The notes beneath the pieces are model-generated. The model made no database searches, was not told where the DNA came from, and saw only the letters and a program-made list of their open reading frames with translations. A stretch of 60,620 nt of DNA from Anaeromyces robustus. Its lineage: Eukaryota. Below, in pieces: positions 643 to 47,381 of this stretch (its first letter is position 1; each line of letters opens with the position of its first letter). The stretch lies in assembly GCA_002104895.1 (NCBI GenBank), contig MCFG01000203.1, positions 62,001 through 122,620 of the forward strand, given 5' to 3'. The translations under genes and the position numbers were made by a program.

Positions 643-1885
643 TTTGACTATATAATATTAATATTAATAAAATAAATTAAAAAAAAAAATTAATATATAA
701 TTTATTTTATAAATACAAGTATGTTTATTAATGTAAATTTAATAATATTAATATATGTTTTCCTTTTAAAAGAAAAAAAAATAAAATGTAGTTTATTTTA
801 ATAAAATATAAAAAAAAAATATATGGTCTATTAATTAAAGAAATGTATAATCTTAAATAGTGAAAATATTGTATTAACATGTAAATAGATATATATAAAG
901 TGAAAATATTGTATTAATAAATACACAAATATATATAATATTTTTCTTAAATTTATTAATACTACTAATAGAATTAAATCATTTATATAAATATTATATT
1001 TTATAAAAATAATCAATAATTTTAAATTTAATCGATATTTACTTTTATTATTTAAATATTTTTTTTACTTTAAAAAAAAAATACAAATAATTTTTTTTTT
1101 CTCGATTTAATTATAATATTTATTTATTTATTTATTTATTTATTTACTTATTATTTATTTATTATAATATATAATAATAACTCAATTATTATTATTAAAG
1201 AATATAACCGTATTTTTTTAATAAGAAATAAACAAATGAAAATATAAATATATAAATAAATAACTATTAAAAGTAAATAAATAACTATTATAAGTAAATA
1301 AATAAATAATTAATTAATTAATTATTTAAATTTTATTTATTTATTTATTATATTAATATATTCTTAAATATATATTCTTAAATATATTACATAAGCATTT
1401 TTTTCAAATAAATAATGAATCTTAATAATTAAAAAGTTAATTTATTATTAAATTTATTTTTTATTTTATTAATTATATAGATGAAAATGATTAAAATGAT
1501 TCTTTCTAATAAAAATTTTTTTTCTTTATATTATAATTATAATATATTATTTATATTAATTAAATTAAATTTTTTTCTTTATATATTATTATTATTTAAT
1601 ATTTTATATTTTTATTGGTTGTAAAAATTTAAAAATTTAAAAAATACATATTTATTTAATGTATTCTACTTAATGTTAAAAGTCAAACTTTCAACTTTAT
1701 TAATATTTTATGAATATGAGTTACAAGTTAAATTACATGCTTTTATACAAAGTGACTTAAACGTAAAAGTTAATACATTACTTTTAATACTTTTAATAAA
1801 TTAATTATAATTTGATTAAATTTTAATTATAATTTTTTTTTTTATATTAGAATATTTCATAATGCCAAATAATGTATAGTAAGAA

Positions 1886-1967
1886 ATGTTAAAAAAAAAA
1901 GAAAAATTCATAACATTTCATTAAAATAAATTATTAATGAAATGTTATGAATATTTTTTTTTAACAT
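1886..1967. repeat. Foldback inverted repeat (~80 bp)
   Basis: attcataacatttcattaa (1906-1924) and ttaatgaaatgttatgaat (1934-1952) are perfect reverse complements; pairing extends imperfectly to atgttaaaa.../...ttttaacat. Confidence 0.7.
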
Positions 1968-3148
1968 AGATATTGAAATTACATTTGCTATCATGGAGAA
2001 ACTTAAGAAGGAATATAATAAAAAAAAAAGAATCTAAGGATACAAGATATTAGTAAGGAAAGCTATTCTCTTTAAAAGTATCAAACTTAAAGAAATGCTC
2101 AAATATTTTTAAAAGTATTAAGGAAACCTTTGGTATTCTTGACAGAAAGGAATATAAATTTGGAGTTTTTGAAAAAGTAAAAAGCATTACCTTTTGAAAT
2201 TTAGTTAAAAATTACTGTTGACGATGATTAATAATGAAAATCCTTATGAATTTTTAAAATTAACCAAAAAGACTTGTAAATGCTTTCTAAAATATTAATA
2301 ATGAAACATTAATTAGAAATGAAAAAGAGGTTAAATAAATAAAAAAAAAAATTAAAAATATATAACCAGGAAATAAATAATTATCAAATAAAATATAAAT
2401 AAAATATTAATAAATAAAGTTTATATTATAACCAGAATACTATTTGCTTTGAATAATAATAATAATAATAATAATTATAATTAATTTAATAAAATATTAC
2501 TTTTTTTTTTTATTTATTATCATTATTATTAAATAACTGCCTAAAAATAAATAAATAATAAATATTGAAAAATTTTATAAAATTAATTTTTTATAGTGGT
2601 TTTATATTTATTTTCCTATATTATTTCCTCTTATAACGTTTTTATTACTACTATTTAAATAAAATTATATATTATATATAAAAATAATTTATTTTTTTTC
2701 TTATATATATATTTCAATTGAATTTAAATGCATTTTCTTAATTTTTATATTTATTAAAAAATACATGTTAAATATATATATATATATATAATAAATAATT
2801 TCACACATATGAACATTTTATTTAAAAAGTATTTTTAATAATTTAATTACTTAAAACAAAACATTATATCGAGTTTACTCTTTTTAAAAGAAAAAATATA
2901 TATAATATATTTTTTCAATTTAAAAAAAATTCTCTTTTTCTATCAATTTTTTTTTAATTTCTAATTAATTTTATTATAAATTTATAAATAATTAAAATCT
3001 TTTTGAACAAATTAAAGATAAATTATATTAATAAATTGGTTAAATAGTCAATTTAATAAAATAATTCAATTCAACAAAAAAAAAATATAATAAAAAGAAA
3101 TTGAAATAAAAAAAAAAGTTAAAAAATAAATATTAATAATATATACAA

Positions 3149-3429
3149 ATGTTGATATTAGTATTATTATGTATAATTCTAATTGCCATTTTTGTCTTAT
3201 TATCTATTTATTTGATTATTCAAATAATAAAATGTAATAAGGCAGTGAAAGAAAGTAAAAATCGACTTTTACAATATGGTGCTAAAACTGCTATATTGAG
3301 TTATGGAAAAATGAATTATGTTGATAAAGGAAGTAATGATGAAAATATTATTCTTTCAGTTCATGGTATTTTTGGTGGTTATGACCAAGGTTATGATGCC
3401 TATAAAGATTTTAGGGATAGTTCAGATTC

Positions 3430-3463
<34 letters not shown>

Positions 3464-4108
3464 TATAGAATTATTGCACCTTCAAGATTTGGATATTTAG
3501 GTAGTGATATAATGGGTAATGGAACACCTAAAGAACAAGCTAAAGCTTATATAGAATTATTAAATAATTTAAAAATTGATAAAGTATTTGTATTAGCAAC
3601 TTCTGCAGGTGGAAGTCCAGCTATACGTTTTGCTTTAGATTATCCAGAAAGAGTAAAAGGTTTAATTTTATATTGTAGTGCTATGCCTTTTTATGAAAAA
3701 CCTAAAAAAATCATTAAATATGCTGGTCCACCACCATTTATATGTAATAATTTTCTTATGTTTTTAATGAAACCATTATTTAAACTCATTATGGGTATGG
3801 AACCTTCTACTATATATAGTATATTACCTATTAATGATAGGAAAAATGGAGTAATCATAGATGCTTCTATAACCAATTTAGATATGGCAAAAAATTATGA
3901 TGAATATGCCGTTGAGAAATTAAAAGTTCCTACTATAGTTTTCCAAGCTAAAGATGATAAATTAATAAATTATATTGATACTGAAAAATCTATAAAACGT
4001 TTTCCTAATTGTACTTTTATTTCATTTGAAAATGGTGGTCATTTAATGACAGGACATGAAGAAGAAATTCGTAAGGAAGTTTCTAAATTTGTTTCAACCT
4101 ATCATTAA
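3149..4108 (+). CDS. Alpha/beta-fold hydrolase with N-terminal membrane anchor/signal, intronless, 319 aa
   Basis: HG oxyanion motif (SVHGIFGG), APSRFGYLGS, nucleophile elbow ATSAGG, ALDYPERVKGLIL, acid region QAKDDKL and catalytic His GGHL; hydrophobic N-terminus. Confidence 0.9.
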
Positions 4109-5115
4109 ATATATATATATATATATATATAGTCCAGTTTAAACTTTCTTTTCATTCATGATTCCTCTTTTATTATTTTATTTATTATATATATTATAAA
4201 TCCTTAATTATTCATACTTTATATATCACAAATATCTATATAGATGATAGTTATTTTCTAAAGTTTTTAGAGGATTACTTAAAAAGCTTAATAAAATAAA
4301 AGACAAATGTTGATTAATTATAATATATATATATATATATATATAAGGTTGATGAAATATTTATAAATAGTATTATTTGAAAGGAATAATATTCTATCTT
4401 TCCTTCTTCATATTTGATATTATATCAAAAATGATTTAAGTAGTATTAATAAAAACAATAAAAATTGTAATGAAAATAATTAAAAAAAAAAAAAAAAAAT
4501 ACAAAATATAACCTTTTAACTATCTTAATAATTATGAATAATTATTTTCTTATATAAAAAATTAATATATATTAAATTCATTATAATTTGTTTTTATAGT
4601 TTATATAAAACATAATTATTATTATAATAAAAATAAAAATAAAAATTAAAAGAAAACATAATGATTATTATAATAAAAATAAAAATAAAAATAAAAATTA
4701 AAAGAAAAAAATTGCAAACAATTATAAGTAAAAAAAGGGTAACATTTTTTTTTAATTTATTTTCAAAATTAAAGAGGGTAGTATTTTTTTTTCTTTTTAA
4801 TATATAAAAATAAGTACAAAAAATTGGTTAACATAATGAATTTTTTCTATAGTAATAATGGTAATGTAACAAAATACAAAATAAATATAAAGAAAAATAT
4901 AAAATAGAAAAAAAAAATTTTTTTTCTTTATATGGTAAATTTATACAAAGTAAAATAGAATAATACTAATAATAATAATAAAAAGAAATGTAGTTTTAAA
5001 CAAAATAACAATATATATATAAAAATACAAAAAAATTGGTTAACAAAATGAAATTTTTTTTTTATAGAAATAATGTGACAAAATACAAAATAAATATAAA
5101 GAAAAATATAGAATG

Positions 5116-5149
<34 letters not shown>

Positions 5150-5201
5150 GTTTTTATTTTGTATAAAAATATACAAAATAAAACATAATAATACTAATAA
5201 T

Positions 5202-5204
<3 letters not shown>

Positions 5205-5242
<38 letters not shown>

Positions 5243-8200
5243 GCAATAAAATAATGAAAATTTTATTTAAATTTAATTTAAAAAGTACATGTTATAAAGT
5301 AATTGTACATATTAAAACTTAATCTAATAAAGAATAATAATTTATTATTTAATAGATAGTAATAATTTATAATTACTTCATATGGTATAGTGTATATTAT
5401 TAAATTAAATCAAGTTGGAAAGTTATTATCATTATTAGATGCGTGTGACCTACTGTCTTGTCCTACTGAATTGTCAGCTTCGACGCTCTTGGTTAGATTG
5501 TTGGGATACCTATTGAATAATGACCAGATCTGGCCACTAACAGTAGGCATAATTCTAAGTAAAAGTGCGGATGTACGTACCAAAAGTGGAACATCCGAAA
5601 AGGTGCTAGGTTTAAGTTGCGCCTTACAAAGACTGTTCCACTCCTCTTTCCCCAAGTTATAATGATTAACTCTTCCACCAAGAAGGAAATAATATACCCT
5701 ACTCCATTCCAACGAGTTGGAATGAAAATTTACCCCACTTGAAGCATTACTAACTAAATTATTATAATTAATACTATTATTTAAACTATTATTATTGTTG
5801 TTGATACTATAACTGAAAGTATTATTTAAGTTGTAAGTTAAACTAACATAATGAATAAAACTATTAGAAACTAAGAAAGTATTATTTCGTGAAGAATTCT
5901 CCAAGGAGGAGAAATTGTTGAAGTAATTAAAACCAAAAAAAATGTTGTTGACAGTTAAATTATTAATGAATTGAGAGTAGTTGTATAGAAAATATGTAGA
6001 TAAGCTAGTACTATTACTATTACTAACATTATTAATATTACTATTATCATTGCTATTACCATTATTATTACTATTAATATTAATATTACTATTACTACTG
6101 CTATTATTATTATAGATATTATCATAAATATTATTATTGTAGTTATTATTAAAATTATTAGAAAAGTTGATATTATCAGAACTAACTAAAGGTTTTCGAT
6201 TAACATACAAATAAATGGTTTCAAGATTGCCAAATAACTTAGAACGCCAATGATCGAATGTTGGGCATTCTAAAATCCAATGTTCGAAGGTTTGACTACC
6301 GCCTTTACAACAAGGACAGTAATCAGGGCAAGAGTCGGATACAAGTTTAGCGGCTTTAGCAATTTCACTATTGAATTTATAACCACTACGTATTTTGAGG
6401 AGCCAATTAAAGCCATAAGCCAAGTTAGGGTATTCAAGTTCAAGATGTAAATAATCACGAGATAATTCAAGGTGATTATCACAATAGGTAACAGCTTTAA
6501 CGGAGTCTTTTTTGACATCTCTATTCCAATAAAAAGTCAAGATATCTTCTCTAGAGCCAATTTTAGAAAGTTTCTTTGATAAAGTTCTGCTTTCTTTAGC
6601 CCATGTGTATTTTCTCATCTTCGGAATAATAGTAACTAACTTGGAAATAATACAATTAGAGTCTGCCCATCTCTTAAAACATTTATCTTGAGCAATGGCA
6701 CATTTGGCAGAAAGAGGAGGAATATTAAGATCTTTAGATACATTATATAAAGATATGAAGGAAGAGCGCTTCCTAAGACCTGCAATCCAAGAGAGTCCTT
6801 TATTAATTAGCCTTTGAGCACCGTTTGTTCTAGTTTTATTAGATCCAAGTAAAGGTGCAACGTATGATACTTGACTGACAACAACCGAATTAAAAACTGA
6901 TTTCTTGAAGGATATAGGCATATAAGGATTAATTAAAAATCCTCTAACAGAAAAAAGCGCTTTCCTAACTTTATTATTCGTCGATTTAATTATCGGTTTA
7001 AGAGATAAATCACTATCAAAAGGAATTCCCAAATACGTATAACAATTAGTTTTTGGAATAATTTGACCAGCAAGGTAAAAGGTAGGGTCACCTTTAACTT
7101 TAGAATTTTCTGCTTTTACAACCGTAGTTCCACATTTACCAATTCCGAATTCCATAAGGTTAAATTTAGCCCAATCATTAACTTTTTTCAAAAGCTTATT
7201 TAGTTTACTTCTAGTAGGTGCACAAAGGACAATATCATCGGCAAAGAGGCCCCCACAACAGTATTCGTTATCAATACAAACTCCATATTCGTTACAATCT
7301 CGAAAAATATCGTTGATGAAAAGGTTAAATAAGATAGGAGAGAGGGGACAACCCTGTCTAACACCTTTCTCAATATTGAAAGTATCCGAATATTGAGAGT
7401 CAAGTTTCACACAAGCTTTGGAAGATAAGTATAAGTTTTTAAGGAAATTATAACATTTTCCTCTAATTCCTAAGCATTCAAGTTTATTCAGAATATTATA
7501 AATAGGAACTGAATCATAAGCTTTTTTAAGGTCTAAAAAAGCCAAATAAGTATCTTTTCCCATATTCTGTCTGGTCTGACATATAGTACGAATGGAGACA
7601 AATAAACTGATACATTCTTCTTTATTACGAAAACCAAATTGTTCAGGTCTAATGAAATTATTCTTGTAAGCATATGTTGAGATTCTGGTAGTAACAATTT
7701 TTGAGATAATTTTAATACAGTTATTGATCAGGGATATACCTCTATAATTATTACAGTCATATAAGTCTCCTTTTTTAGGGATAGAAACAATACAAGCAGT
7801 ATTCCATAAATCCGGAAAGTCACCATCCCAAATACGGTTGTAAAATAAATGTAGAAAAGAGAGACCATAATTAGTAATATCAGAAGAGTCATCGGAGTTT
7901 CCAAAATCAGTAGAAATAGCTTTAAAAAATTCAATAGGAACATCATCAGGACCTGAAGCTTTAAATTTAGGGATATCAGAAATAGCTGATCGAATTTCCT
8001 CAATACTAATTTCACCATTAATATCCCACTCTATATTATTGCTGAAGTTATATAACTTATGGTTGGCAGGGTTGGACCAAAAAGGTTTATATAAACTATG
8101 ACCAGTAGAATCAGAAGCTAACTTTTCATAATGGTCATGCCAAACGTTAAGTTGTTCACGAGAAGAATAAACAATGTTGTCATCGTTATCTTTAATAGGA

Positions 8201-9919
8201 TGAAGTGAAAAGTTAGATGATTTACCAATTTTAGTATTCTTTTTGATCCATTTCCACCAATTCCTAGAATCTTTATTAATAGCCAACTGACACCCAACTG
8301 AAACCCAATGTTGATATTCAAGCATACGAAAGTGATTACACATCTTGTGGATATTATCACACAGCTTCTGATAATTATTGATAAGTCTAATATAATCATC
8401 AAGGGCACGAACAGAACCCAATTTTTTAATATCTTTGTAAGCCTTAACTTTGAGTTTCTGAAGGTTAAAGATTTTTTGAGACATATGAAACATAGATTCA
8501 TGAATATCAGGAGTAGATATAATTTCCAATTCATCAGCAATAGAATTAGCAGTAGATACAAACATATCATATATAGCATTAGAAGAATAATAATTATCTG
8601 TACATTCCTTCATAAGAATACTAAATCTATTACTAGTAGCAATTTTAATACTTTCGTCCAGACATTTGATTCTATTCCAACGAGCTGGTTTTTTAGGGAG
8701 TGAGAAAGTATTATTATCATCAAAATAATTTCCAAAAACAAGAAGAGGCTTATGATCGGAGATAGGAGAGAAATCAATAATTGAAGCTGAAGACAGAAGA
8801 TTTTTCATGGGTTCATTAATAATAGCATGGTCAATAGCAGAGGAACGACTTCCACTTACCCACGAGATAGGAGAACCATTGAGTTGAAATAAATACCAGC
8901 CATTTATATTAGAAACCCAATTTTGAATATCTTCAAGATTAATGTTAAAATCGCCAAGGAGAATAGAAGGATGATGTAAGTGAAGAGAAAACCATGTACA
9001 AGCTTCTGCTTTAGCAGATTTATGGTGTAAACTATGCCCTTTCTGAGGTATATAAATATTTCCAATAGAACACTTAGTGAAGTTCCACAAGGAATATGTC
9101 GTAACTGAGATAATATAATTCAAAGAAAAATCTTCAATAGAAGTCTGTAAAGACCTATTATAAAAGATATATAAACCTCTCAAACCAGGAATTGTATTAT
9201 TTGCTCTCTTACAGAAATATTTATATTTAGGTAAAGTGATTTTACAAGGAATAACATTACTAGAATTAGTACCATTACCAGTTTCTTGAAAACAAACAAA
9301 TAGCGGTTTAAAGAGACTAAAGAAATACAGAATACCATCTCTTTTCTTGTTATTCCACCCGTTAGTGTTCCAACTAAGACAAAAGGAAAATTCATTCAAA
9401 TTGTTCTTAGAAGTAAAAGAATTGTTGATTTCAGAAAAGTCAGTAATATTAATATCCTTAATGTTCTTTTTAGAGTGGCAAAGTTTTCTCCTGATAAGAG
9501 CAAAGGAAGGCTTGTGATTCTTCCTACTACATCGATGAAAGTTAATGGAACATTTTTTAATAATTAATTTGAAACTATCAATAAATTTATTAATATTCTC
9601 CTCAGAAGCTGTAGTTTTAATTTGATATAAATTATCATTAAGAAGAGAGGAATGTTTAACAGCAACGATGGTATTATTAAACTCAGGGAAATTCTTCTCA
9701 AGAAAATTTCTAAATTTTGGAAGAGTCCAAGAACGAATGCGACGGATAAAAATAACATAAGTATCTGAGATATCAATACCATGACACCTAATACCCCGTC
9801 TGATATAGTTAATCTTATTAGTATAGTTCGTATGATCCATTTGATAAGGCTGATAAGAATCTATATAAAAAAAAAATAATAAAATAAAAAAAATATAAAT
9901 GTATTATAATAGAAAATAG

Positions 9920-9964
<45 letters not shown>

Positions 9965-10574
9965 ATTTTAATATATAATTAAAAAATAAAAAAGTATATA
10001 AAAAAAAACTTAGCAATGAAAAGAATTATAGTAAATGACTGAGAAATATTGTTGAGAGAAAAAGTAAGAGATTCAACTGTGTAGTTGTATATATAATTTA
10101 ACGTTGTGAATGATGTATTAGTGAATAAAAAAACTTTTATTGTTGGTATGTAAAAAATTGTATTGTATAGTATTTATTGTGCTGTATTGATTGTGCTGTA
10201 TATAAGAATAATAGTGTAGAATTGATAGAAACATAAAAAACTTAATTGTAAAAAGAACTGCAATATAAACTAAATAACATAAATAGTGTAAGGTAATTAT
10301 TTCAAAGAAAAAAAAAAAAAATGGATTGTAATAAAAAGTCGTACTTTTTATTACTAACATTATCATTGCGCATAATGTTACCTACTTCTTTAACCGAATA
10401 GTGAATATAAATAATCATTACACCAAGCATTATCATTGCGCATAATGCCCAACTTAGATACAAGTACAATATCATAAGTTGTAACAATGCCATTGACGTC
10501 GCCATGTCTCGACAGGCATTCTTCCTCTTCCGACCATTCCAATAAATTGGAAAGTACAGGACCTCAGAAGAGGG
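5205..10574 (-). mobile_element. Full-length non-LTR retrotransposon (LINE), copy 1
   Basis: Poly(T) 5204-5241 is the poly(A) tail on the minus strand. TSD actaataataat at 5193-5204 and 10575-10586. Identity with copy 2 stops exactly at ...gaagaggg (10574). Contains an intact APE-RT ORF. Confidence 0.95.
5410..9840 (-). CDS. LINE polyprotein: N-terminal domain + AP-like endonuclease + reverse transcriptase + CCHC zinc knuckle, 1476 aa
   Basis: APE motifs SWNTNG, FQET, NIYIP, GDFN, IDH, SDH. RT motifs GPDD, NYRGISL, QFGFR, DLKKAYDSV, GVRQGCPLSP, FADD. Knuckle CPCC-x8-H-x4-C (CPCCKGGSQTFEHWILEC). Confidence 0.95.
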   Translation of the reverse strand: MDHTNYTNKINYIRRGIRCHGIDISDTYVIFIRRIRSWTLPKFRNFLEKNFPEFNNTIVAVKHSSLLNDNLYQIKTTASEENINKFIDSFKLIIKKCSINFHRCSRKNHKPSFALIRRKLCHSKKNIKDINITDFSEINNSFTSKNNLNEFSFCLSWNTNGWNNKKRDGILYFFSLFKPLFVCFQETGNGTNSSNVIPCKITLPKYKYFCKRANNTIPGLRGLYIFYNRSLQTSIEDFSLNYIISVTTYSLWNFTKCSIGNIYIPQKGHSLHHKSAKAEACTWFSLHLHHPSILLGDFNINLEDIQNWVSNINGWYLFQLNGSPISWVSGSRSSAIDHAIINEPMKNLLSSASIIDFSPISDHKPLLVFGNYFDDNNTFSLPKKPARWNRIKCLDESIKIATSNRFSILMKECTDNYYSSNAIYDMFVSTANSIADELEIISTPDIHESMFHMSQKIFNLQKLKVKAYKDIKKLGSVRALDDYIRLINNYQKLCDNIHKMCNHFRMLEYQHWVSVGCQLAINKDSRNWWKWIKKNTKIGKSSNFSLHPIKDNDDNIVYSSREQLNVWHDHYEKLASDSTGHSLYKPFWSNPANHKLYNFSNNIEWDINGEISIEEIRSAISDIPKFKASGPDDVPIEFFKAISTDFGNSDDSSDITNYGLSFLHLFYNRIWDGDFPDLWNTACIVSIPKKGDLYDCNNYRGISLINNCIKIISKIVTTRISTYAYKNNFIRPEQFGFRNKEECISLFVSIRTICQTRQNMGKDTYLAFLDLKKAYDSVPIYNILNKLECLGIRGKCYNFLKNLYLSSKACVKLDSQYSDTFNIEKGVRQGCPLSPILFNLFINDIFRDCNEYGVCIDNEYCCGGLFADDIVLCAPTRSKLNKLLKKVNDWAKFNLMEFGIGKCGTTVVKAENSKVKGDPTFYLAGQIIPKTNCYTYLGIPFDSDLSLKPIIKSTNNKVRKALFSVRGFLINPYMPISFKKSVFNSVVVSQVSYVAPLLGSNKTRTNGAQRLINKGLSWIAGLRKRSSFISLYNVSKDLNIPPLSAKCAIAQDKCFKRWADSNCIISKLVTIIPKMRKYTWAKESRTLSKKLSKIGSREDILTFYWNRDVKKDSVKAVTYCDNHLELSRDYLHLELEYPNLAYGFNWLLKIRSGYKFNSEIAKAAKLVSDSCPDYCPCCKGGSQTFEHWILECPTFDHWRSKLFGNLETIYLYVNRKPLVSSDNINFSNNFNNNYNNNIYDNIYNNNSSSNSNININSNNNGNSNDNSNINNVSNSNSTSLSTYFLYNYSQFINNLTVNNIFFGFNYFNNFSSLENSSRNNTFLVSNSFIHYVSLTYNLNNTFSYSINNNNNSLNNSINYNNLVSNASSGVNFHSNSLEWSRVYYFLLGGRVNHYNLGKEEWNSLCKAQLKPSTFSDVPLLVRTSALLLRIMPTVSGQIWSLFNRYPNNLTKSVEADNSVGQDSRSHASNNDNNFPT

Positions 10575-11328
10575 ACTAATAATAATAATAATAATAAAAT
10601 TAATATAGTTTAAACAAAATAAAAAAATTGATACAATAAAATAAAAAAATTAATACGGTTTAAACAAAATAAAAAAATTAATACGGTTTAAACAAAATAA
10701 AAAAAAAATAGAGCAATTTAAAAGTTTAAACAAAATAAAAAAAAAAAAAAAAATAGAACAATTTAAAAGTTTAAATTAAATAAAAAAAATAAAAACAAGA
10801 TAGAATAAAAAAAAAAGAATATAATATTAAACAGAATAATTTATGTATATATTTTCATTTTTTATTTAGTATTTTAATGTTTTATTTTTTCATTTTTTTT
10901 TATATTATTTTATCTTAAACTATTAATTTTTTTTTAATTGAAAAACGAATAATTATAAATTATTATTTAATTTACCAGAAAAACAATGTTTTTAATTATA
11001 TATACTGAAAAAGTATATGAAAAAATAATAAAAAAAGTTAATAAAAAAAAAATTTTTTTTTTAAAATTGTTGTATTTTTTAAATTTCGAATTTGATATTT
11101 CGGTATATAATAATTTAATTATTATTATGTTAATATAATAATTATTTGAAGGTTTATTTGTTTGATTGATTATTTATTTATTTTATTTTTGTTTTTGTTT
11201 TTTTTTTTTTTTGGTTTTCTTGCTTGATTGTTTGTTTTTATTAATTGATATAATTAATATTTTATTTTTTATATTTATATATTTTTATAATTTCATATTT
11301 TATATAAAATTTTTATTTATTTATTTAT

Positions 11329-12728
11329 TTACATTGGACCAACATTTCTTGTAACTTGATTATAAACATTATTAACATTATCCATTGAATATTTATATGG
11401 TACACTATAAAGACTACCAACTCTTGTAATGGAATTACTTCCATAATTATTACCAAAATCATTATTACGTTCAACAGCATAACCTTCTTCTACGGATTCA
11501 TAATTGGTAACAATTGGATGATTAGCATTACGGAAAACATTACCTTCAACTAATACTTGAGCACCCATACGTGAATTAACACAGGAATATTCAATATTTT
11601 CATAAACATTATTATATATATGTCCTGTACCAAAACGTAAAGATGGTAAACGTGATACAATATTTTTAAAGTAATTATGATGATAAGTAATATGTAATTT
11701 ACCAGAATCACCACTACCATTACTATCACTATGTCCAACTAAAGTTGCTTTAGAATGATGATGAAGATAAGTCCATGATACAGTAATAAAATCACTAGAA
11801 TAGGTAAAATCAACTAAACCATCATAATAATCTTTACCATGATCAAGATCATTATAAAATTCACAATGATCTACCCAAATATTTGTAGATCTTCTAAAAC
11901 CAAGACAATCTTTACTTGAACCTAAACAATAACTAAATTTAATATTTTGTATAATAATATTACTAGCACTTTTAATGAAGAAACCTCCACCTGTAAATCC
12001 AGAATTATTATCTATACCAATAATAGAGAAATTGGATTTTTTATTTATACTAATATCTTTTGAAAGTTTTATAATACCTTTTACCCCAATAATAATTGGA
12101 TCTGATGATTTAAGAGCTGAATTTAATTCAGATTGATTGGATACAATGACTACTTTACCTCCTTTACCACCTGTTGTACCACCATTTAATGAAGCATAAC
12201 CAACTGGTTCTTTAGGTAAATTAGAATTAAATTGTGGTTGTGGTGATGGTGTTGGTTGTATAGTAGTAGTGGTTGTAGTGTTGTAGTAGTAGTAGTAGTT
12301 GTTGTAGTAGTAGTGGTTGTAGTAGTTGTAATTATTGTTTTAGTAGTTGATTGTGGTTGTGGTTCATTTGACAAAATACACATGGAATAATATGAATTAT
12401 ATTCTTTACATATATAACCGGGTTTACAACATGTTGAACCTTTCCAGTTATTACTATTTAATAATAATTTTTAAAATAAAAAAAATATAAAAGAAGTATT
12501 TAAATAAAAATATAAAATAAAAAAAGTGTGATTAATAAATATTTCTATTTTTCTTTTCTTTTCTTTTCTTTTATTTATTTTATTTTATTTAGTAGTTATT
12601 CTTTTAATCATTGAAATGAAATAATAATATATTTACCCTCCACATTGGAAAAATGCTGAATTTGCACATTCTTCAGTAAATACATATGCAATATTTAATA
12701 ATACAATTATAAAGAATAGTGTTTTCAT
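11329..12728 (-). CDS. Secreted CBM1-linker-PL1 pectate lyase; 2 exons (12728-12637, 12453-11329) with a 1-nt frameshift in the Thr linker near 12280
   Basis: Signal peptide MKTLFFIIVLLNIAYVFT, then CBM1 (CANSAFFQCG/GNNWKGSTCCKPGYICKEYNSYYSMC), a poly-Thr/Pro linker, and a PL1 domain (GYASLNGGTTGGKGG, NIIIQNI, IWVDHCEF, YYDGLVD, RLPSLRFG, NSRMGAQVLVEGN). GT..AG intron 12636-12454. Confidence 0.88.
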
Positions 12729-13655
12729 TTTGACTTGAATGATATATGTAGTTTAAAAGAATATGAAATATATATTTTATATATAATATTTTATTCTTTT
12801 TTTTTTTTTTTTTATTAAAATAATCAATGAATCATTGACATTTTTATATGATTTTTTGTTTTTTATATTTTTTGTATCTATATATGATATAATTATTATA
12901 TAATTTGTAACAATGATAACAATACAAAAAATTGGTATGACAAAAAATAAAGTTTAATAAAATATAAATTAATTTATAATCATTTTTAATGTTTATATCA
13001 ACGAGGAAAATAATAATTAAGTGGAAATTTATTTATTAAATTATATTTATTATTAAATTAAAAAAAAGAAAAAAAAGAGGAATATAATTTTAAAGGGTTT
13101 TTTTTTAATTATCATTTTATTAAAAATTTTCAAAATTTTAATATTATATTACATTGATAATAGTATTAAAGTTATTTTATATGTATTTTATATTTATATA
13201 ATAAATTCATTATTATTAGATAATATTTAATATATAATATATAATATTTAATATTTAATATATAATTTCATAATTCTTTTCTTTTTAATTATTAAATTAT
13301 TTTATTTATTTATTTATTTATTTATTATTGTTATTATATTCCTTATTTAATTATTTTTAGTTAATTAAAGTTACAATTTAATATAAATGATAGGTTTAAT
13401 CAATATAAAAAAGCATGATGTAAAAATTTAAAATTTAAGAAAAAAAAAAAAGTAAAATAAAATAAAATAAAATATATAATAAAAATAAAATAAACTCATT
13501 AATGATAAAAATTGATATTGTATATCATTTAAGATTTTCACAAAATGACAAATTGATTTTTTTAATATACATCAACTATTTTAATTTAATTTAACCAAAC
13601 TTTAATTAATAATTAAAAATAAAATAATAAATAATTAAAAATAAAAATAAAATTA

Positions 13656-13718
<63 letters not shown>

Positions 13719-13719
13719 G

Positions 13720-13777
<58 letters not shown>
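13656..13777. repeat. (AAAT)n microsatellite
   Basis: Direct tandem tetranucleotide repeat. Confidence 0.95.
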
Positions 13778-13781
<4 letters not shown>

Positions 13782-15385
13782 TTTATTTATAATCTTTTTT
13801 TTTTTTGTTTTTGTTAATATTAATTATGAATATAAATGTTTAATTTAATATAATTCTATTATATACACATAATATATTTAGAAAATATAATTGTATACAA
13901 CACTTTTATTGTTTAACCAAGTTTTTTTTTTTTAATATTATGGAAAGATTATTATTAATATAAAATTAAAATAATAAATACAATTATTTTGTATATAAAA
14001 TACTATTTATTTAGTTATTTATTTATTATATTTATAATATTTATTTAATATATAAGAATAATTAAATAAAAAGAAACTATTTCATTTGATATAATAATAA
14101 ACAAGTTTGTGATTATTGGTTTGTTTTATTATTATTATTACTATTATTACTATTATTAATATTATATTATATCATAGGTTATTTATTATTAAATAATGAA
14201 AGAATTAATATAAAATTTTTTAAATATAATTTAATTGCTCTTTTATTTTTTTTTTCCTTCATATTATTATTATTGTGTCTTTAATTATATTATTATTACT
14301 TTTTATATGCAATAATTGTTAAATTCTTTATTCTTTAATTATTCTATAATATAATGATTATTTTTTAATTTTGACTTTAAATATAAAAATATATATATCA
14401 ATCGATTATTAATATTACACAGACTATAATAAATTATCTAAAAAAAAATAATTTATTAATCTACTATACATATATTTCAGAATTAATATTATTAAAAGGA
14501 ATGATAATACATTTGGATTATATATATATATGTTTTTCACTTATTTTGAAAAATAAAGAAACTTTACATAATCATTATATTTAATATATATATATATTTA
14601 TAATTTATATATAAAGAAGTAAATTTTTTTTTTTTTGATTAACATATTTACATTATACATAATTATATTTATTATTTAATTTTTTATTATTATTACTATT
14701 ATACTATTATTATATTAATTATTAACTTTACTTATAATTATTTATTTATTATTAATAAATAATATTAAATAAATAATCATTATTATAAAATAATATTATT
14801 AAATAAATAATCATTATTATTACTATAATTCTTTTTCTCATGGCTTTTTTTGTCTTTATATATATATAAAAGTTAATATATTAAATATTAACCTTTTTTA
14901 TTTTTAAATTATATATATTATATAATAACCGGATAAATATTAAATATTTTTATTATTAAATACTTTTTTAGATTATTTTTATTAATTTTATTCTTATTGG
15001 ATAATTATTATAAATAATTAAATATCTCAATAAATGATACAAACATCTCTTATTTTGGGATAAAGTCTTAATTGGGAAAATGTAAAAATTCATTATAATG
15101 AAAAATATTTTGATAAATAATTTAAAATAAAAAATAAAAAAAAAAAAATAAAAAAAATTAATAGTTTGATCAATTTATTAAAAAAGAAAAAAAGAAAAAC
15201 TAATAGTTAGATCAATATTTATTAAAAAAAAAAAAAAAAAAAAAAGACTAATTATTTTCATATTATTATAAAAATTTTCATTATAATTGTTTTATATTTA
15301 TATATATTCAAATTAAATAGAAAAAAAAATAAAAAAACAAAAATAATATAATATAATAATTAAATAAAAAAGAAGATAATACAAG

Positions 15386-16315
15386 ATGGCAGATTCATGT
15401 ATACAAGAAATAATAAATGTTCCTATAATTGATAATACTCATTCATTATTATATCATCTTTGTTCTAATTCACTTGGAGGTATTATAAATTTTATGATGA
15501 GAGTTTCTAAACCTTCTGATCTTGTAAATACTCAAGATGATGATGGTAATACACCTTTACATTTATTATGTAGTAGAATTGATGATTCAAAAATGGAAAA
15601 TGTAAATTGTTTTAAATATATTAATGATTGGAGTTCATTTTTTTCATGCTTTACTTCTCAACCTTCATTAGAAACTTTTATTTTAGTATTTAATTATTTA
15701 TCAGGTTTTGCAGATTTTTCAATAAAAAATAATGAAGGAAAAACTATAGATGAAACCACAGATAATACTTTAATTCATAATATGTATTATAATATAATGA
15801 ATAATTCACCAGAAACTACTAATACTAGTAGTACTGTTCACCAAAAAGTTTTATTAAGAAATAGTACTAATATTAAAGATATTCCTAATAAAGAAAATTG
15901 GAGTGTTTTATTTAGTTTAAAAGATTCTAATAATAAAAATAGAATATTATTACATCATCTTTGTTCTGGAGATCGTTTAAGTGCTATTAAATTATTAATA
16001 GAAAATGGAGCAAAAACTAATGGTGAAAAAGGAAATTTTTCTTCTCTTAATGGATTATTTACATTAATGGATAAAAGTTTAGATGAATATTCATCTGTAA
16101 AAATTTATGTTCCATCAGGTTTTAGACATGCTGATAATATTATATTAGATGACTTAAAAAAGAATTCAAAATTATCATATAATGAAAGAAAACTTCTTGA
16201 AGAGACAGAAGAAATTGCTTTATATTTAGCAGATAATGGAGCAACTTCATTTGCTCTTGAAACATTTTATTGTATTTCAGATATTTTATATAGAATATAT
16301 AAAAAGAAAAATTAA
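15386..16315 (+). CDS. Ankyrin-repeat-like protein, 309 aa, intronless
   Basis: VNTQDDDGNTPLHLLC, ADFSIKNNEGKT and LLHHLC...AIKLLIENGA are ankyrin consensus segments. Confidence 0.8.
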   Translation: MADSCIQEIINVPIIDNTHSLLYHLCSNSLGGIINFMMRVSKPSDLVNTQDDDGNTPLHLLCSRIDDSKMENVNCFKYINDWSSFFSCFTSQPSLETFILVFNYLSGFADFSIKNNEGKTIDETTDNTLIHNMYYNIMNNSPETTNTSSTVHQKVLLRNSTNIKDIPNKENWSVLFSLKDSNNKNRILLHHLCSGDRLSAIKLLIENGAKTNGEKGNFSSLNGLFTLMDKSLDEYSSVKIYVPSGFRHADNIILDDLKKNSKLSYNERKLLEETEEIALYLADNGATSFALETFYCISDILYRIYKKKN

Positions 16316-16504
16316 AAAATAAAATATATATATTATATTTTTAATCAATTAAACTTTATTTATTTAATATGATTAAATATAATGGAAATAGGCAAACAAA
16401 TAAGCAAAATTAAATAGACAAAACAAATAAATAAATAAGTAAATGAAAAATATCAAAAAAATTTTTTATGAAAAAATTCAATGTTTTATTTTCTTTTCTT
16501 TCTT

Positions 16505-16535
<31 letters not shown>

Positions 16536-17016
16536 CAATTAAAATAATATAAAAAAAATTATTGTTATTGATAAAAATAATAATATATTAAATAATAAAA
16601 AAAATATTATTAGTATTGTTAAAAAATAAGAATAGTATATAATACAGAAAAACAAAATGTAATACTTTATAAAATTACACTTTTCAATTATTTTTATTAA
16701 TATAATTTTTTTTTTAAAAGAAAATAGTTAAATAATATAAATAAATAATAAAAATAAAAAATAAAAAATGTAATTTTTAATATTAATGAATTATTTACAT
16801 TACCTTTTTAGGAAAATTATATATATTTTAAATTTTTTATATATAAATGTCTACCATAAAAATATTAAACCTAAACACAATAAAAAAGATATATAAAAGT
16901 ATATATAAAAATTGGAATTTTTTTTTTTTTAGGTTAAATTTTATTTTTGAATATAAGTTTAGGAATTCATTTTAATAAAAAAAATTATGTAATAAATTTT
17001 TTTTATTTCATTTTCA

Positions 17017-36887: not shown

Positions 36888-37632
36888 TATTATGTTAATA
36901 CACAATAAAATGAAAGTCAAAATGTTTTTTTTTTTTTGTGTAACATAATAATAAAATATATACATAAATAAATGAAATTAAAAAAAAAAAAAAATAACTT
37001 GAAATTCTGTTTTTTTAATTTAAACTAAAATATTATTTTGCATTACTATTTTAGTCGACCAGTTTCTATCCTGGTTGTTAAGGCGTTTCCTTAGCATACA
37101 TAAGGCTTCTGGATCGACACCGCATCTACCCCAAGCACAAGTGGTTTTCTCCTTCACGGGTTTTACACTGTGGCAAGGTAGTGCACAGGTATAGTATTTG
37201 TGGCGTAGCTACTCACGCCTCATTAAATAATATAAGTATATGAGTAGATCTTTAAGTCTAATAATGTGGGGTGCGGCTCTAAATTATTGGGCGGTTTCCT
37301 TGGTGACTACTATTCATATGTGGGGCTTGTAGACTGGACCCGTTATTAAGTTAGCGTTAGGGTTTAAGTACAAATGTAAAATATATGAATATACCAAGGG
37401 CGTCGACGCCGAAAAGGTAAGGCAGGGAATTTAATTCCGATACATTCATGTGAAAAATCACATGATAAGTCTATAAAAAAAAAAAAAGCATTACTATTAT
37501 GTCAATACACAAACAAATAAAAGTCAAAATTTCATTTATTTATGTATATATTTTATTATTAACATAATAATAATGCAAAATAATATTTTAGTTTAAATTA
37601 AAAAAACAGAATTTCAAGTTATTTTTTTTTTT
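36888..37632. repeat. Local duplication/inversion flanking the SINE
   Basis: 36990-37048 is the reverse complement of ~37568-37627 (aaataacttgaaattctgtttttttaatttaaactaaaatattattttgcatta). 36946-36979 is inverted at ~37528-37560. 36888-36923 is an imperfect direct repeat at 37495-37530. Confidence 0.8.
37051..37487 (+). mobile_element. Candidate tRNA-derived SINE with LINE-related 3' end
   Basis: TSD gcattactatt at 37040-37050 and 37488-37498; A13 tail 37475-37487; GC much higher than the flanks. A-box-like tatcctggttg (37067-37077), anticodon-loop-like cttagcat and B-box ggatcgacacc (37111-37121). The 3' motif 37393-37423 is similar to the LINE 3' end. Confidence 0.8.
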
Positions 37633-37908
37633 AAAATTTATATTTTTGATGAAAAATGTTTTATCCTAAATTTTCATAGTTGTGAAAAAATTATTACTTC
37701 TCCACAGATTATTTTAAAAAGAAAATTAAAAGCTATATCTAAAATCATTTTAATTAACATCAAATATATAATTATCAACAAAAGAAAAAAATTATGATAT
37801 ATATCTGAAAAATTTAAGATTATTTTGATGATAGTAATAATATAGAAATTTTACTTGAAATTCTCATAAAATTTCTATATATAAAAGTAATTAAAAAATT
37901 ATTATTAA

Positions 37909-44782: not shown

Positions 44783-46720
44783 AATATATTTTAATATTAT
44801 ATATATTTATTTTACTATTATAGTTATAAATATAAATATTGTTTTATATATTGTTTTATATAAATAAATTTTTTATTAGTATGATATTCATATATATTGG
44901 TTATATATTTAAATTTATTTATTTTATATATATTTTTAATTAAATTAAATATAATTTAATATATGTAAAATATATTATTATATATTAAATGCTAAGAATA
45001 ATTAATATCCAATGAAAATAACCAATAAATATAATTAATCCATTATTACTCTATACTATTTTTATCCAAATATATTATATTACATTGTAAAGATTATATA
45101 TAATCTTTTTTTAATTCTGTATAATGTTTTTATATTTGAAAATTAATTTAAATTTAATTTATTTTATACTAAATAATAGTATATATTTAGTTTACTATAA
45201 TATATTAATTAATATGTTATTTATATAATACAATATATATACCATATATTAAATAATTAATATAATAAATAAAGGAAATTATAAGTTATATAATAATAAT
45301 TAAATGAATAAAATAAGATATTAAATAAATACTTAATAAATAAATTAATGAATAAATAAATAAATAAATAAATTATAGAATATCTTTGTTCCTAAAAATT
45401 GATTATACTCATAAACAAAGATAAAGAAAAAAAAAAATTTAAATAATAATTAATTAATAGTAAATAATTACCATAATTACTAGTAAAAAAAGAAAAAAAA
45501 AAAGTTTGTACAAATCTTTTTATATATAAAAATATTCTTATTAGTTATAATAATTATTATTATTTTAATATATTATAATAATAATAATAGAAAAATTAAT
45601 AATACTAATAATGCTAACAATAATAATATTAGTTTATTTTAATATTTCTATAATTATTAAATATTATTAAATACTTAAATATTTTAATATTTTAAAAACT
45701 TTAATTAATAATATTTAATAGTATTTAAATAATATGATTTATTTATTATATTATTTATTTATTTATTTATATTAATTATTTATTCATTCATTCATTTAAT
45801 AAAAAATATATACGAAAATGAATTATATATAAAAGTTTATTTTTCTTTATTCATATGTTTTTATATTTAATAATGATTAATTAAATATATTTAATAAATA
45901 ATAAAAAAAATTTTTTATATTTAGAAATATTATTAATTAAGATTAATATAACAAATTTAATATACAATAATTAAAAAAAAATTTTTTTTAAAAGCCAACA
46001 TACAGAACTGTTTCACTTTTTTTTTATTATTAGTATTTTCTACAATAATTTATTTTTTCTTATTTAATTTATTTTTAATTTTGTCTTTTTATATATTTAC
46101 ATCAGAAATTCCATTAAAAAAATAACTAAATATCATTTTTTAGTTATTTATCATTATATCTTATCATTACATAAATATTAAAAACATCTATTAATTTTTT
46201 GTTAATTATATAAAATTCAAAATATAATATGAATTAATTTTTTATTATTATTTTTTAGTAATTTGTATTGTAAATATTGTATATATAGTATATATCATAG
46301 AAAATAACAAACCAAATAATAAAAAAAAAAACCAAATAATCCTAATTTTGTATATGTGTTTTTAAATATATAATATAATCTTGTAAATAATATCAAGCAG
46401 TATCAAGTAAAATTTTAATATAATATATATAATAATCAGAGCTTTTTAAATAATTAATATATATAATAAAAGTAATAATAATAGCTTTTTTTTCTTTATT
46501 ATTATTTTTATTATATATATATATTGTAAAAAAGAAAAAATTAAAATAATTTAAATAAGAAAAAACAAATATTAACATTAATATTAAATTCAAAAGTATA
46601 TTATTGACATATTAAATAACAAAAAAAAAAAAAAAGAAAAAGAAAAAAGAAAAAGAAATAACAATATAGTAATAGTCTTAATAAATAATAATTAAGATAA
46701 TTAAATTAAATAATACAAAA

Positions 46721-47348
46721 ATGACAGATACTTTATATTCATTATATACTGAAAGTCCAACTGAGACTTCTACTACTTATTATTCTGAAAATATCTTATC
46801 ACCATATGCTTCAGAAAATATTACTGAATCTATAAATAATAATACCCTAATTTCCAGTATAAATTCTATGGTTACTTTTCAAAATAATTTAAATCAAAAA
46901 TATACCAATGCAAAAGAATTACCAAATGAAATTTTGTTAAAAATCTTCAATTATTTAGATAATATGAATGATATATTAAATTTACGTTGTGTCAATAAAA
47001 AGTTTAAATCTTTAAGTGAAGTAAAACTTTATGATATTATCGAAGAAAAAATACAAACATTAGAAAGTAAGAAAAAGAGTTTAGAAAGACGACTTTCACA
47101 TATGAAAAATCATTTATGTCCAAGACTTTCACATTATAAAGTATTTTTAAACGTTATTAGTCGTTCAGACGTTTCTGAACTTTGTAATCTTCCAAAACCT
47201 CCAAGAGAAGTTAAATACATTTTTAGTGTTCTTTATATTTTATATACTGGTGGTAAAAATTGTCGTTGTATACAATGTACTCAGAATAAAAATACACTCA
47301 GTCCTAATTCATATTCTAATTTTAATAATATAAGTAGTAGCAATAGTT

Positions 47349-47381
<33 letters not shown>

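Follow-up and report, generated by a model that had tools for sequence, protein, structure and literature searches.

LINE and SINE copies in the window

The window, that is, the whole stretch of 60,620 nucleotides of Anaeromyces robustus DNA analysed here, is very AT-rich. Host genes at 3140-4108, 11329-12339, 15380-16315, 46685-48166 and 60253-60327 encode alpha/beta hydrolase, pectate lyase, ankyrin-repeat and F-box proteins and tRNA-Val. Two copies of a LINE and one copy of a SINE are present.

5242..10574, minus strand: LINE copy 1 (lineage A), full length, poly(A) at 5204-5241
5193-5203 / 10575-10585: 11-bp target-site duplication of LINE copy 1
5410..9840, minus strand: single LINE ORF, 1476 aa counted from the first Met
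48886..54209, minus strand: LINE copy 2, an independent insertion with the same 5' start as copy 1
48836-48849 / 54210-54223: 14-bp target-site duplication of LINE copy 2
37051..37487, plus strand: SINE of ~437 nt, multicopy, poly(A) at 37475-37487
37040-37050 / 37488-37498: 11-bp target-site duplication of the SINE
37059..37133, plus strand: tRNA-like head of the SINE, AGC at the anticodon position, cloverleaf pairing not kept
37111-37120, plus strand: B-box-like site in the SINE head
37298..37399, plus strand: long SINE hairpin (P1), closed by CCTTGGT/ACCAAGG
37395..37443, plus strand: LINE-derived block of the SINE, with short-loop P3 at 37402-37423 and P4 at 37426-37438

The two LINE copies are 99.2% identical and thus are counted as one. 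Segmental duplication was ruled out as their origin, since the target-site duplications differ. The LINE is of the APE type: its ORF encodes an AP endonuclease (PF03372, E 2e-6) and a reverse transcriptase (PF00078, E 4e-37), and the copies have poly(A) and variable target-site duplications and no LTR. A CCHC-like motif was read in the ORF by eye. The best solved relative of the protein is human L1 ORF2p (PDB, E 3e-25), followed by R2; a search of the ESM Atlas returned generic reverse transcriptase and endonuclease clusters only. Named relatives of the C-terminus come from Piromyces and Anaeromyces, and this clade of single-ORF endonuclease/reverse-transcriptase elements is likely to come from anaerobic gut fungi.

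The 5' UTR of the LINE is ~730 nt long. Both 5' ends (10440-10574 and 54075-54209, minus strand) start at the same base and contain a GC-rich predicted hairpin. Neither the 5' end nor the 3' end has a credible match in Rfam, and home-made descriptors of HDV-like and hammerhead ribozymes, used without a positive control, matched neither 5' end. One possibility is that the 5' end carries an internal promoter or an unrecognised self-cleaving RNA.

The SINE is short, non-coding, retroposed and multicopy. It was present in 20 of the 24 sequencing runs listed. Summed over contigs, the depth in DNA run X15 is ~1,700-17,000 over the SINE body and 37.5 on its 5' flank, which does not amount to a copy number; the same run contains diverged SINE pieces that differ by 10-15%. 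The head matches the tRNA-Val of the window at 31 of 55 positions in an ungapped alignment, the best of 500 shuffles giving 28. ARAGORN, Rfam and a tRNA covariance model did not recognise it as a tRNA, nhmmer gave E 0.73, no A box was found by the pattern used, and blastn against phages with the head gave chance matches only. The tRNA origin of the head is likely, though not proven. No Rfam match of the SINE was credible. It is nested in an AT-rich MITE-like element with inverted arms of ~100 nt (~36950-37050 and 37566-37665). Another candidate, a bipartite deletion derivative of the window LINE, was rejected because the SINE does not match the LINE 5' UTR (score 20).

Contigs of two RNA runs cover the SINE deeply, although contigs can give neither strand nor level. 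In RNA runs X1 and X16 the contig depth over the 5' half (37062-37260) is far above that over the 3' half, and in run X16 ends joined to adapter lie at 37062/37063, close to where the tRNA-like part starts. This is a weak hint at a shorter SINE transcript.

Collection of relatives

The earlier note, made from the letters of the window alone, proposed that the SINE tail descends from the end of a LINE ORF. Compared directly, the SINE and positions 5230-9950 of the LINE gave a score of 26, which was reached in 119 of 300 shuffles; for the 3' part of one against the 3' part of the other, the score was reached in 106 of 2000. As the pairwise match is weak, relatives were sought. The last 116 residues of the LINE protein matched 88 clusters at 50% identity, the most conserved part being a motif of the form T-K-S-V-N-A-E/D-x-T-V-R/G-Q. 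This peptide motif was found in frame in 50 of the 96 proteins examined. A codon-degenerate pattern was run on metagenomes; of ~610 stretches 120 were examined, and at least five loci (six matches) are LINE ends, while no SINE was found among the 120. A stricter pattern yielded two further LINE ends, on contigs that had been placed in genome bins. Viral contigs scanned with patterns gave four unrelated matches in one case and none in another, and a search for the SINE in G001 and G002 gave no match.

A covariance model built from the window LINE and seven fetched ends gives the SINE a score of 27.9 bits (E ~1e-4, a rough value; next best 12.8). The match is partly circular, as the seven training ends were fetched by patterns that also fit the SINE. 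The tail of the SINE is homologous to a LINE 3' region and the proposed descent holds; the donor, however, is likely to be another lineage (see below).

Several peculiarities were seen among the relatives. Two poly(A)-ended LINE contigs, L125 and L126, come from prokaryote genome bins labelled Methanosphaera and Clostridia, where they are likely fungal contamination. Proteins P0123, P0151 and P0152 carry prokaryote labels in public sources. In four A. robustus gene models (P0109, P0111, P0115, P0116) the LINE C-terminus is fused to unrelated host proteins (beta-glucosidase, zinc finger, lectin and aminopeptidase), which may be either mis-splicing in the models or real exonisation. Locus L080:316-931 has two tandem 5'-truncated LINE ends, the shorter of which starts ~11 nt before the motif, and L033 is a LINE end with a 5' inversion.

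Predicted hairpins at the end of the LINE ORF

The conserved motif coincides with a set of candidate RNA hairpins.

5460..5484, minus strand: P3, a stem, internal loop and hairpin; codons V-E-A-D-N-S-V-G-Q, 16 before the stop
5447..5457, minus strand: P4, a small hairpin that follows P3 immediately on its 3' side; its stem has 3 bp here and 4 bp in most relatives
5506..5550, minus strand: P2, an upstream hairpin predicted in lineage A LINEs and not seen in the SINE
5579..5586, minus strand: 5' strand of P1, a proposed long-range stem with its partner at 5486-5493; weakly supported in LINEs
49104-49128 and 49091-49101, minus strand: P3 and P4 of LINE copy 2

P3 in both LINE copies, its counterpart in the SINE and the upstream strands of P1 (CTTTTGGT at 5579-5586, CCTTGGT at 37298-37304) had all been noticed previously, and the cited strings and coordinates are correct, as are the LINE and SINE peptide frames. 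The element is larger than was then described: P3 stands, with P4 added downstream and P2 upstream. Applied unprompted to eight LINE ends, RNAalifold predicts P2, P3 and P4.

The claim that LINE and SINE form one and the same structure is borne out on the LINE side only. The pair probabilities of P3 are 0.61-1.0 in all seven LINE ends folded, and P3 is the better fold of the window LINE by 4.6 kcal/mol. In the SINE, P3 has a probability of only 0.03-0.10 in a 185-nt context; folded alone with P4 it has -9.1 kcal/mol and the competing hairpin -9.7 kcal/mol, a tie. All eight lineage A ends have the same P3 sequence, which is altered in the SINE only; the case for its pairing thus depends on the predicted folds and a single two-sided change, that of the SINE. 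Three P3 pairs that the codon-degenerate pattern did not fix are kept in 8 of 8 LINE matches (six from this pattern and two from the stricter one) and in 9 of 119 non-LINE matches.

The motif is also conserved at synonymous positions. Between the window LINE and L065, all five of its four-fold sites are identical, one of the five being imposed by the search pattern, compared with 86 of 211 in the remaining ORF. The valine codon used in the motif is GTC, though it makes up only 10-23% of Val codons. Among 1095 windows of 12 codons elsewhere, nine match the motif in third-position identity and 236 in amino-acid identity. These observations support the suggestion that the region is under RNA-level constraint, its sequence being conserved beyond the need of the protein.

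The long-range stem between ACCAAG and UUGGU, also suggested previously, is borne out in the SINE (probability 0.93, z -4.15), where the variants mostly keep the pairing and those at 37312/37390 would be compensatory if linked. It is not borne out in the LINEs: 48 of 56 cells pair there, there are no two-sided changes, and the probability is 0.01, 0.03, 0.03 and 0.37 in the four ends that have TTGGT. Three ends (L065, L125, L126) lack TTGGT. In these, by eye, a site ~90 nt upstream of the motif could pair with the bases preceding ACCAAG, and such a shifted long-range stem forms in the L125 fold. A K-turn was considered and ruled out by eye, as tandem G-A pairs are absent in most relatives.

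The position of the P3/P4 block is 16 codons before the stop in three ends and 40 codons in three. The distance from the block to poly(A) is 216-481 nt in five LINE ends; in the window LINE and the SINE it is 217 nt and 50 nt from the motif end, close to the ~220 and ~50 nt given earlier. Thus the shared block is within the ORF, neither in the 3' UTR nor at the extreme 3' end. In the lineage A LINE ends AATAAA is located 20-30 nt ahead of poly(A); it is absent from the SINE, which has a hairpin of its own at 37446-37466, just ahead of poly(A).

Covariation in P4

The earlier note had suggested looking for covariation in aligned 3' ends. It is almost absent from P3 and strongest in P4, where two-sided changes occur at three of the four pairs (G-C, A-U, U-A). 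On ten rows, 97.2% of the cells of P3 and P4 pair, compared with 15-40% when the structure is slid along the alignment.

Since P4 uses the first and second codon positions, its pairing can be tested on proteins that were found without the DNA pattern. At residues +12 and +15 the codons are complementary in 33 of 45 rows (17.8 in shuffled data); without the window family, they are so in 21 of the 34 usable rows out of 86 examined (10.9 in shuffled data). The signal is reached in 0 of 3000 shuffles and is the top one among 147 residue pairs, although the protein rows are related to each other and kinship inflates such tests. The swaps involve chemically unlike residues: Ser/Asp, Asp/Ser, Thr/Val, Val/Thr, Pro/Gly. 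Among the protein rows other than Ala/Ala, both P4 pairs are kept in only 7 of 20 by Watson-Crick pairing, and in ten when G-U is allowed. We consider the conserved dual-coding RNA element to be real, as judged by comparison of these sequences. The covariation of amino acids at P4 is a caution for methods that predict protein coevolution, as it likely reflects RNA pairing and not protein contact.

Lineage B as a probable partner of the SINE

Contigs that match the SINE at 37395-37433 only, with other sequence on both sides, occur in 4 of 4 runs; the SINE thus appears to have kept the block and not the LINE flanks. In the X2 record this match has three differences. Read by eye, the loose end of the partner contig behind the block gives S-D-T-D-S-N.

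Contig L126 ends in a second LINE fragment that has the SINE-type loop, one codon shorter; this motif at the contig end was not found by model R1. A search with the fragment retrieved six reverse transcriptase proteins; five extend this far and have the sequence V-(K/R)-S-V-D-V-x-x-I-R-(H/Q)-R...S-D-T, with S-D-T-D-S-N in P0121. In a reverse transcriptase tree of 13 rows, comprising our own sequences only, this lineage B splits from the lineage of the window with support 100/100. It is 42% identical to the window LINE over the ORF.

The short loop in lineage B proteins, together with S-D-T-D-S-N in one of them, suggests that lineage B is the likely donor of the SINE tail, the window LINE being a cousin, and that the 39-nt partner contigs may be ends of lineage B LINEs. 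The SINE tail matches the short-loop sister lineage far better than it matches the window LINE; protein profiles score the SINE frame nearly equally (4.1 bits with lineage A, 4.4 bits with lineage B). The terminal 60 nt differ between the SINE and six lineage A ends, and the partner contigs diverge behind the block.

Possible role of the P3/P4 block

We suggest, with a probability of roughly 0.6, that P3/P4, in the last 16-40 codons of the ORF, are the site at which the LINE protein binds its template RNA. Recognition by the reverse transcriptase can reasonably be inferred by analogy, as known stringent LINEs require a 3' stem-loop (PMC5135761). The LINE protein would bind P3/P4 in its own mRNA, and target-primed reverse transcription would then start at poly(A), at a distance of perhaps 50 to 480 nt. 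An RNA with a tRNA head may have gained the block from a lineage B LINE by template switching and thus become a SINE, which would be carried by lineage B proteins. Lineage specificity could be set by the length of the P3 loop and the sequence of P4. A more general version is less likely than not: the block would be a clade-wide dual-coding module of ~45 nt, located in the ORF at most ~480 nt from poly(A), that binds the reverse transcriptase and dictates the C-terminal sequence; its long-loop and short-loop forms in the two lineages would constitute orthogonal protein/RNA pairs, and the module would be sufficient to make a tRNA-headed RNA a SINE.

The hairpins could also be real and serve a purpose other than template choice: they might make ribosomes pause close to the stop codon, help to assemble the RNP with a host protein, or affect the stability or export of the RNA. 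Their position, tied to the ORF end (16 or 40 codons) and not to poly(A) (216-481 nt), fits such a role. However, the SINE, which codes for no protein, has retained the block as well, at 50 nt from poly(A), where a role in translation is improbable, and we regard this explanation as unlikely. Less likely still, the peptide alone is conserved, and the block was left behind passively in the SINE by template switching, the SINE moving via poly(A), that is, by relaxed recognition. Poly(A) alone is enough for human L1, whose ORF2p is the best solved relative of the LINE protein (E 3e-25), all the LINE and SINE elements here end in poly(A), and the peptide motif does recur in 50 of 96 proteins. This explanation is already weakened by the synonymous conservation within the motif, by the covariation of P4 through chemically unlike swaps and by the narrow retention of the block in the SINE.

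The least probable explanation is that the signal is mainly a sequence, ACCAAG-R-GCGUC, together with P4, and that the SINE folds otherwise, into the long P1 and a 4-bp hairpin at 37399-37410. This stretch is indeed the most conserved sequence, and the competing SINE hairpin, more stable by 0.6 kcal/mol, would also explain the paired changes of the SINE. On the other hand, the window LINE favours the P3 fold by 4.6 kcal/mol, and both SINE variants at P3 stem positions keep the P3 pairing.

Binding of the LINE protein to P3/P4 would mean that a template signal need not reside in the 3' UTR. Template choice by LINE proteins has been mapped in few animal elements only. Here a small portable module that varies naturally between two lineages, intact full-length LINEs 99% identical to each other and a matched SINE come together, and thus template choice and lineage specificity become directly testable. 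Few genetic tools exist for anaerobic gut fungi, where a LINE of their own whose cis signal is defined might be used for insertion.

Comparison with known systems

Among the papers on SINEs and LINEs of anaerobic fungi and on ORF-embedded signals, judged by titles and the beginnings of abstracts, none dealt with this element; this covers subscription journals only to a small extent and excludes Repbase, Dfam and SINEBase. Precedents may exist for SINE tails that partly overlap the end of the ORF where the LINE has a short 3' UTR.

Structured tails shared by SINEs and LINEs are well established and, in the accessible parts of the sources, are described as features of the 3' UTR (PMC3747384, PMC5135761, PMC3472496, PMC5786205, PMC2104539, PMC12503042, PMC2996970, PMC2653535). 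Stringent elements include eel UnaL2/UnaSINE1, zebrafish ZfL2-1/-2, silkworm SART1 and carp HAmo. As in these pairs, the SINE has a LINE-derived tail and a tRNA-like head, and the hairpin has an asymmetric internal loop 4-6 bp from the terminal loop. In the stringent pairs, however, the stem-loop is described as a terminal part of the 3' UTR, and LINE and SINE have nearly identical tails (PMC5135761, PMC2653535), whereas here it is in the ORF, 216-481 nt from poly(A), and a block of ~45-50 nt is common while the terminal sequence is not.

The hairpin of monocot L1 elements and SINEs is similar in that ~50 nt are common to several LINE and SINE families, with compensatory changes and poly(A) ends; its sequence and host are different, and placement in coding sequence is not stated in the available text (PMC3472496, PMC3747384). 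The fungal pairs Mg-SINE/MGL and SINE2-1_BG/Tad1-24_BG also combine a tRNA-headed SINE with a LINE-like 3' end (PMC3747384, PMC2104539). Their hosts are Ascomycetes, and they are the only fungal rows in the accessible part of the table (PMC3747384). Bombyx R2 provides an analogue of a structured RNA within a retrotransposon ORF that may engage the protein, but that motif is at the 5' end, has a role in second-strand cleavage and belongs to an element with another class of endonuclease (PMC12503042). Compared with these systems, the difference here is that the shared element is inside the ORF and away from poly(A), the 3' UTR not being common to the LINE and the SINE.
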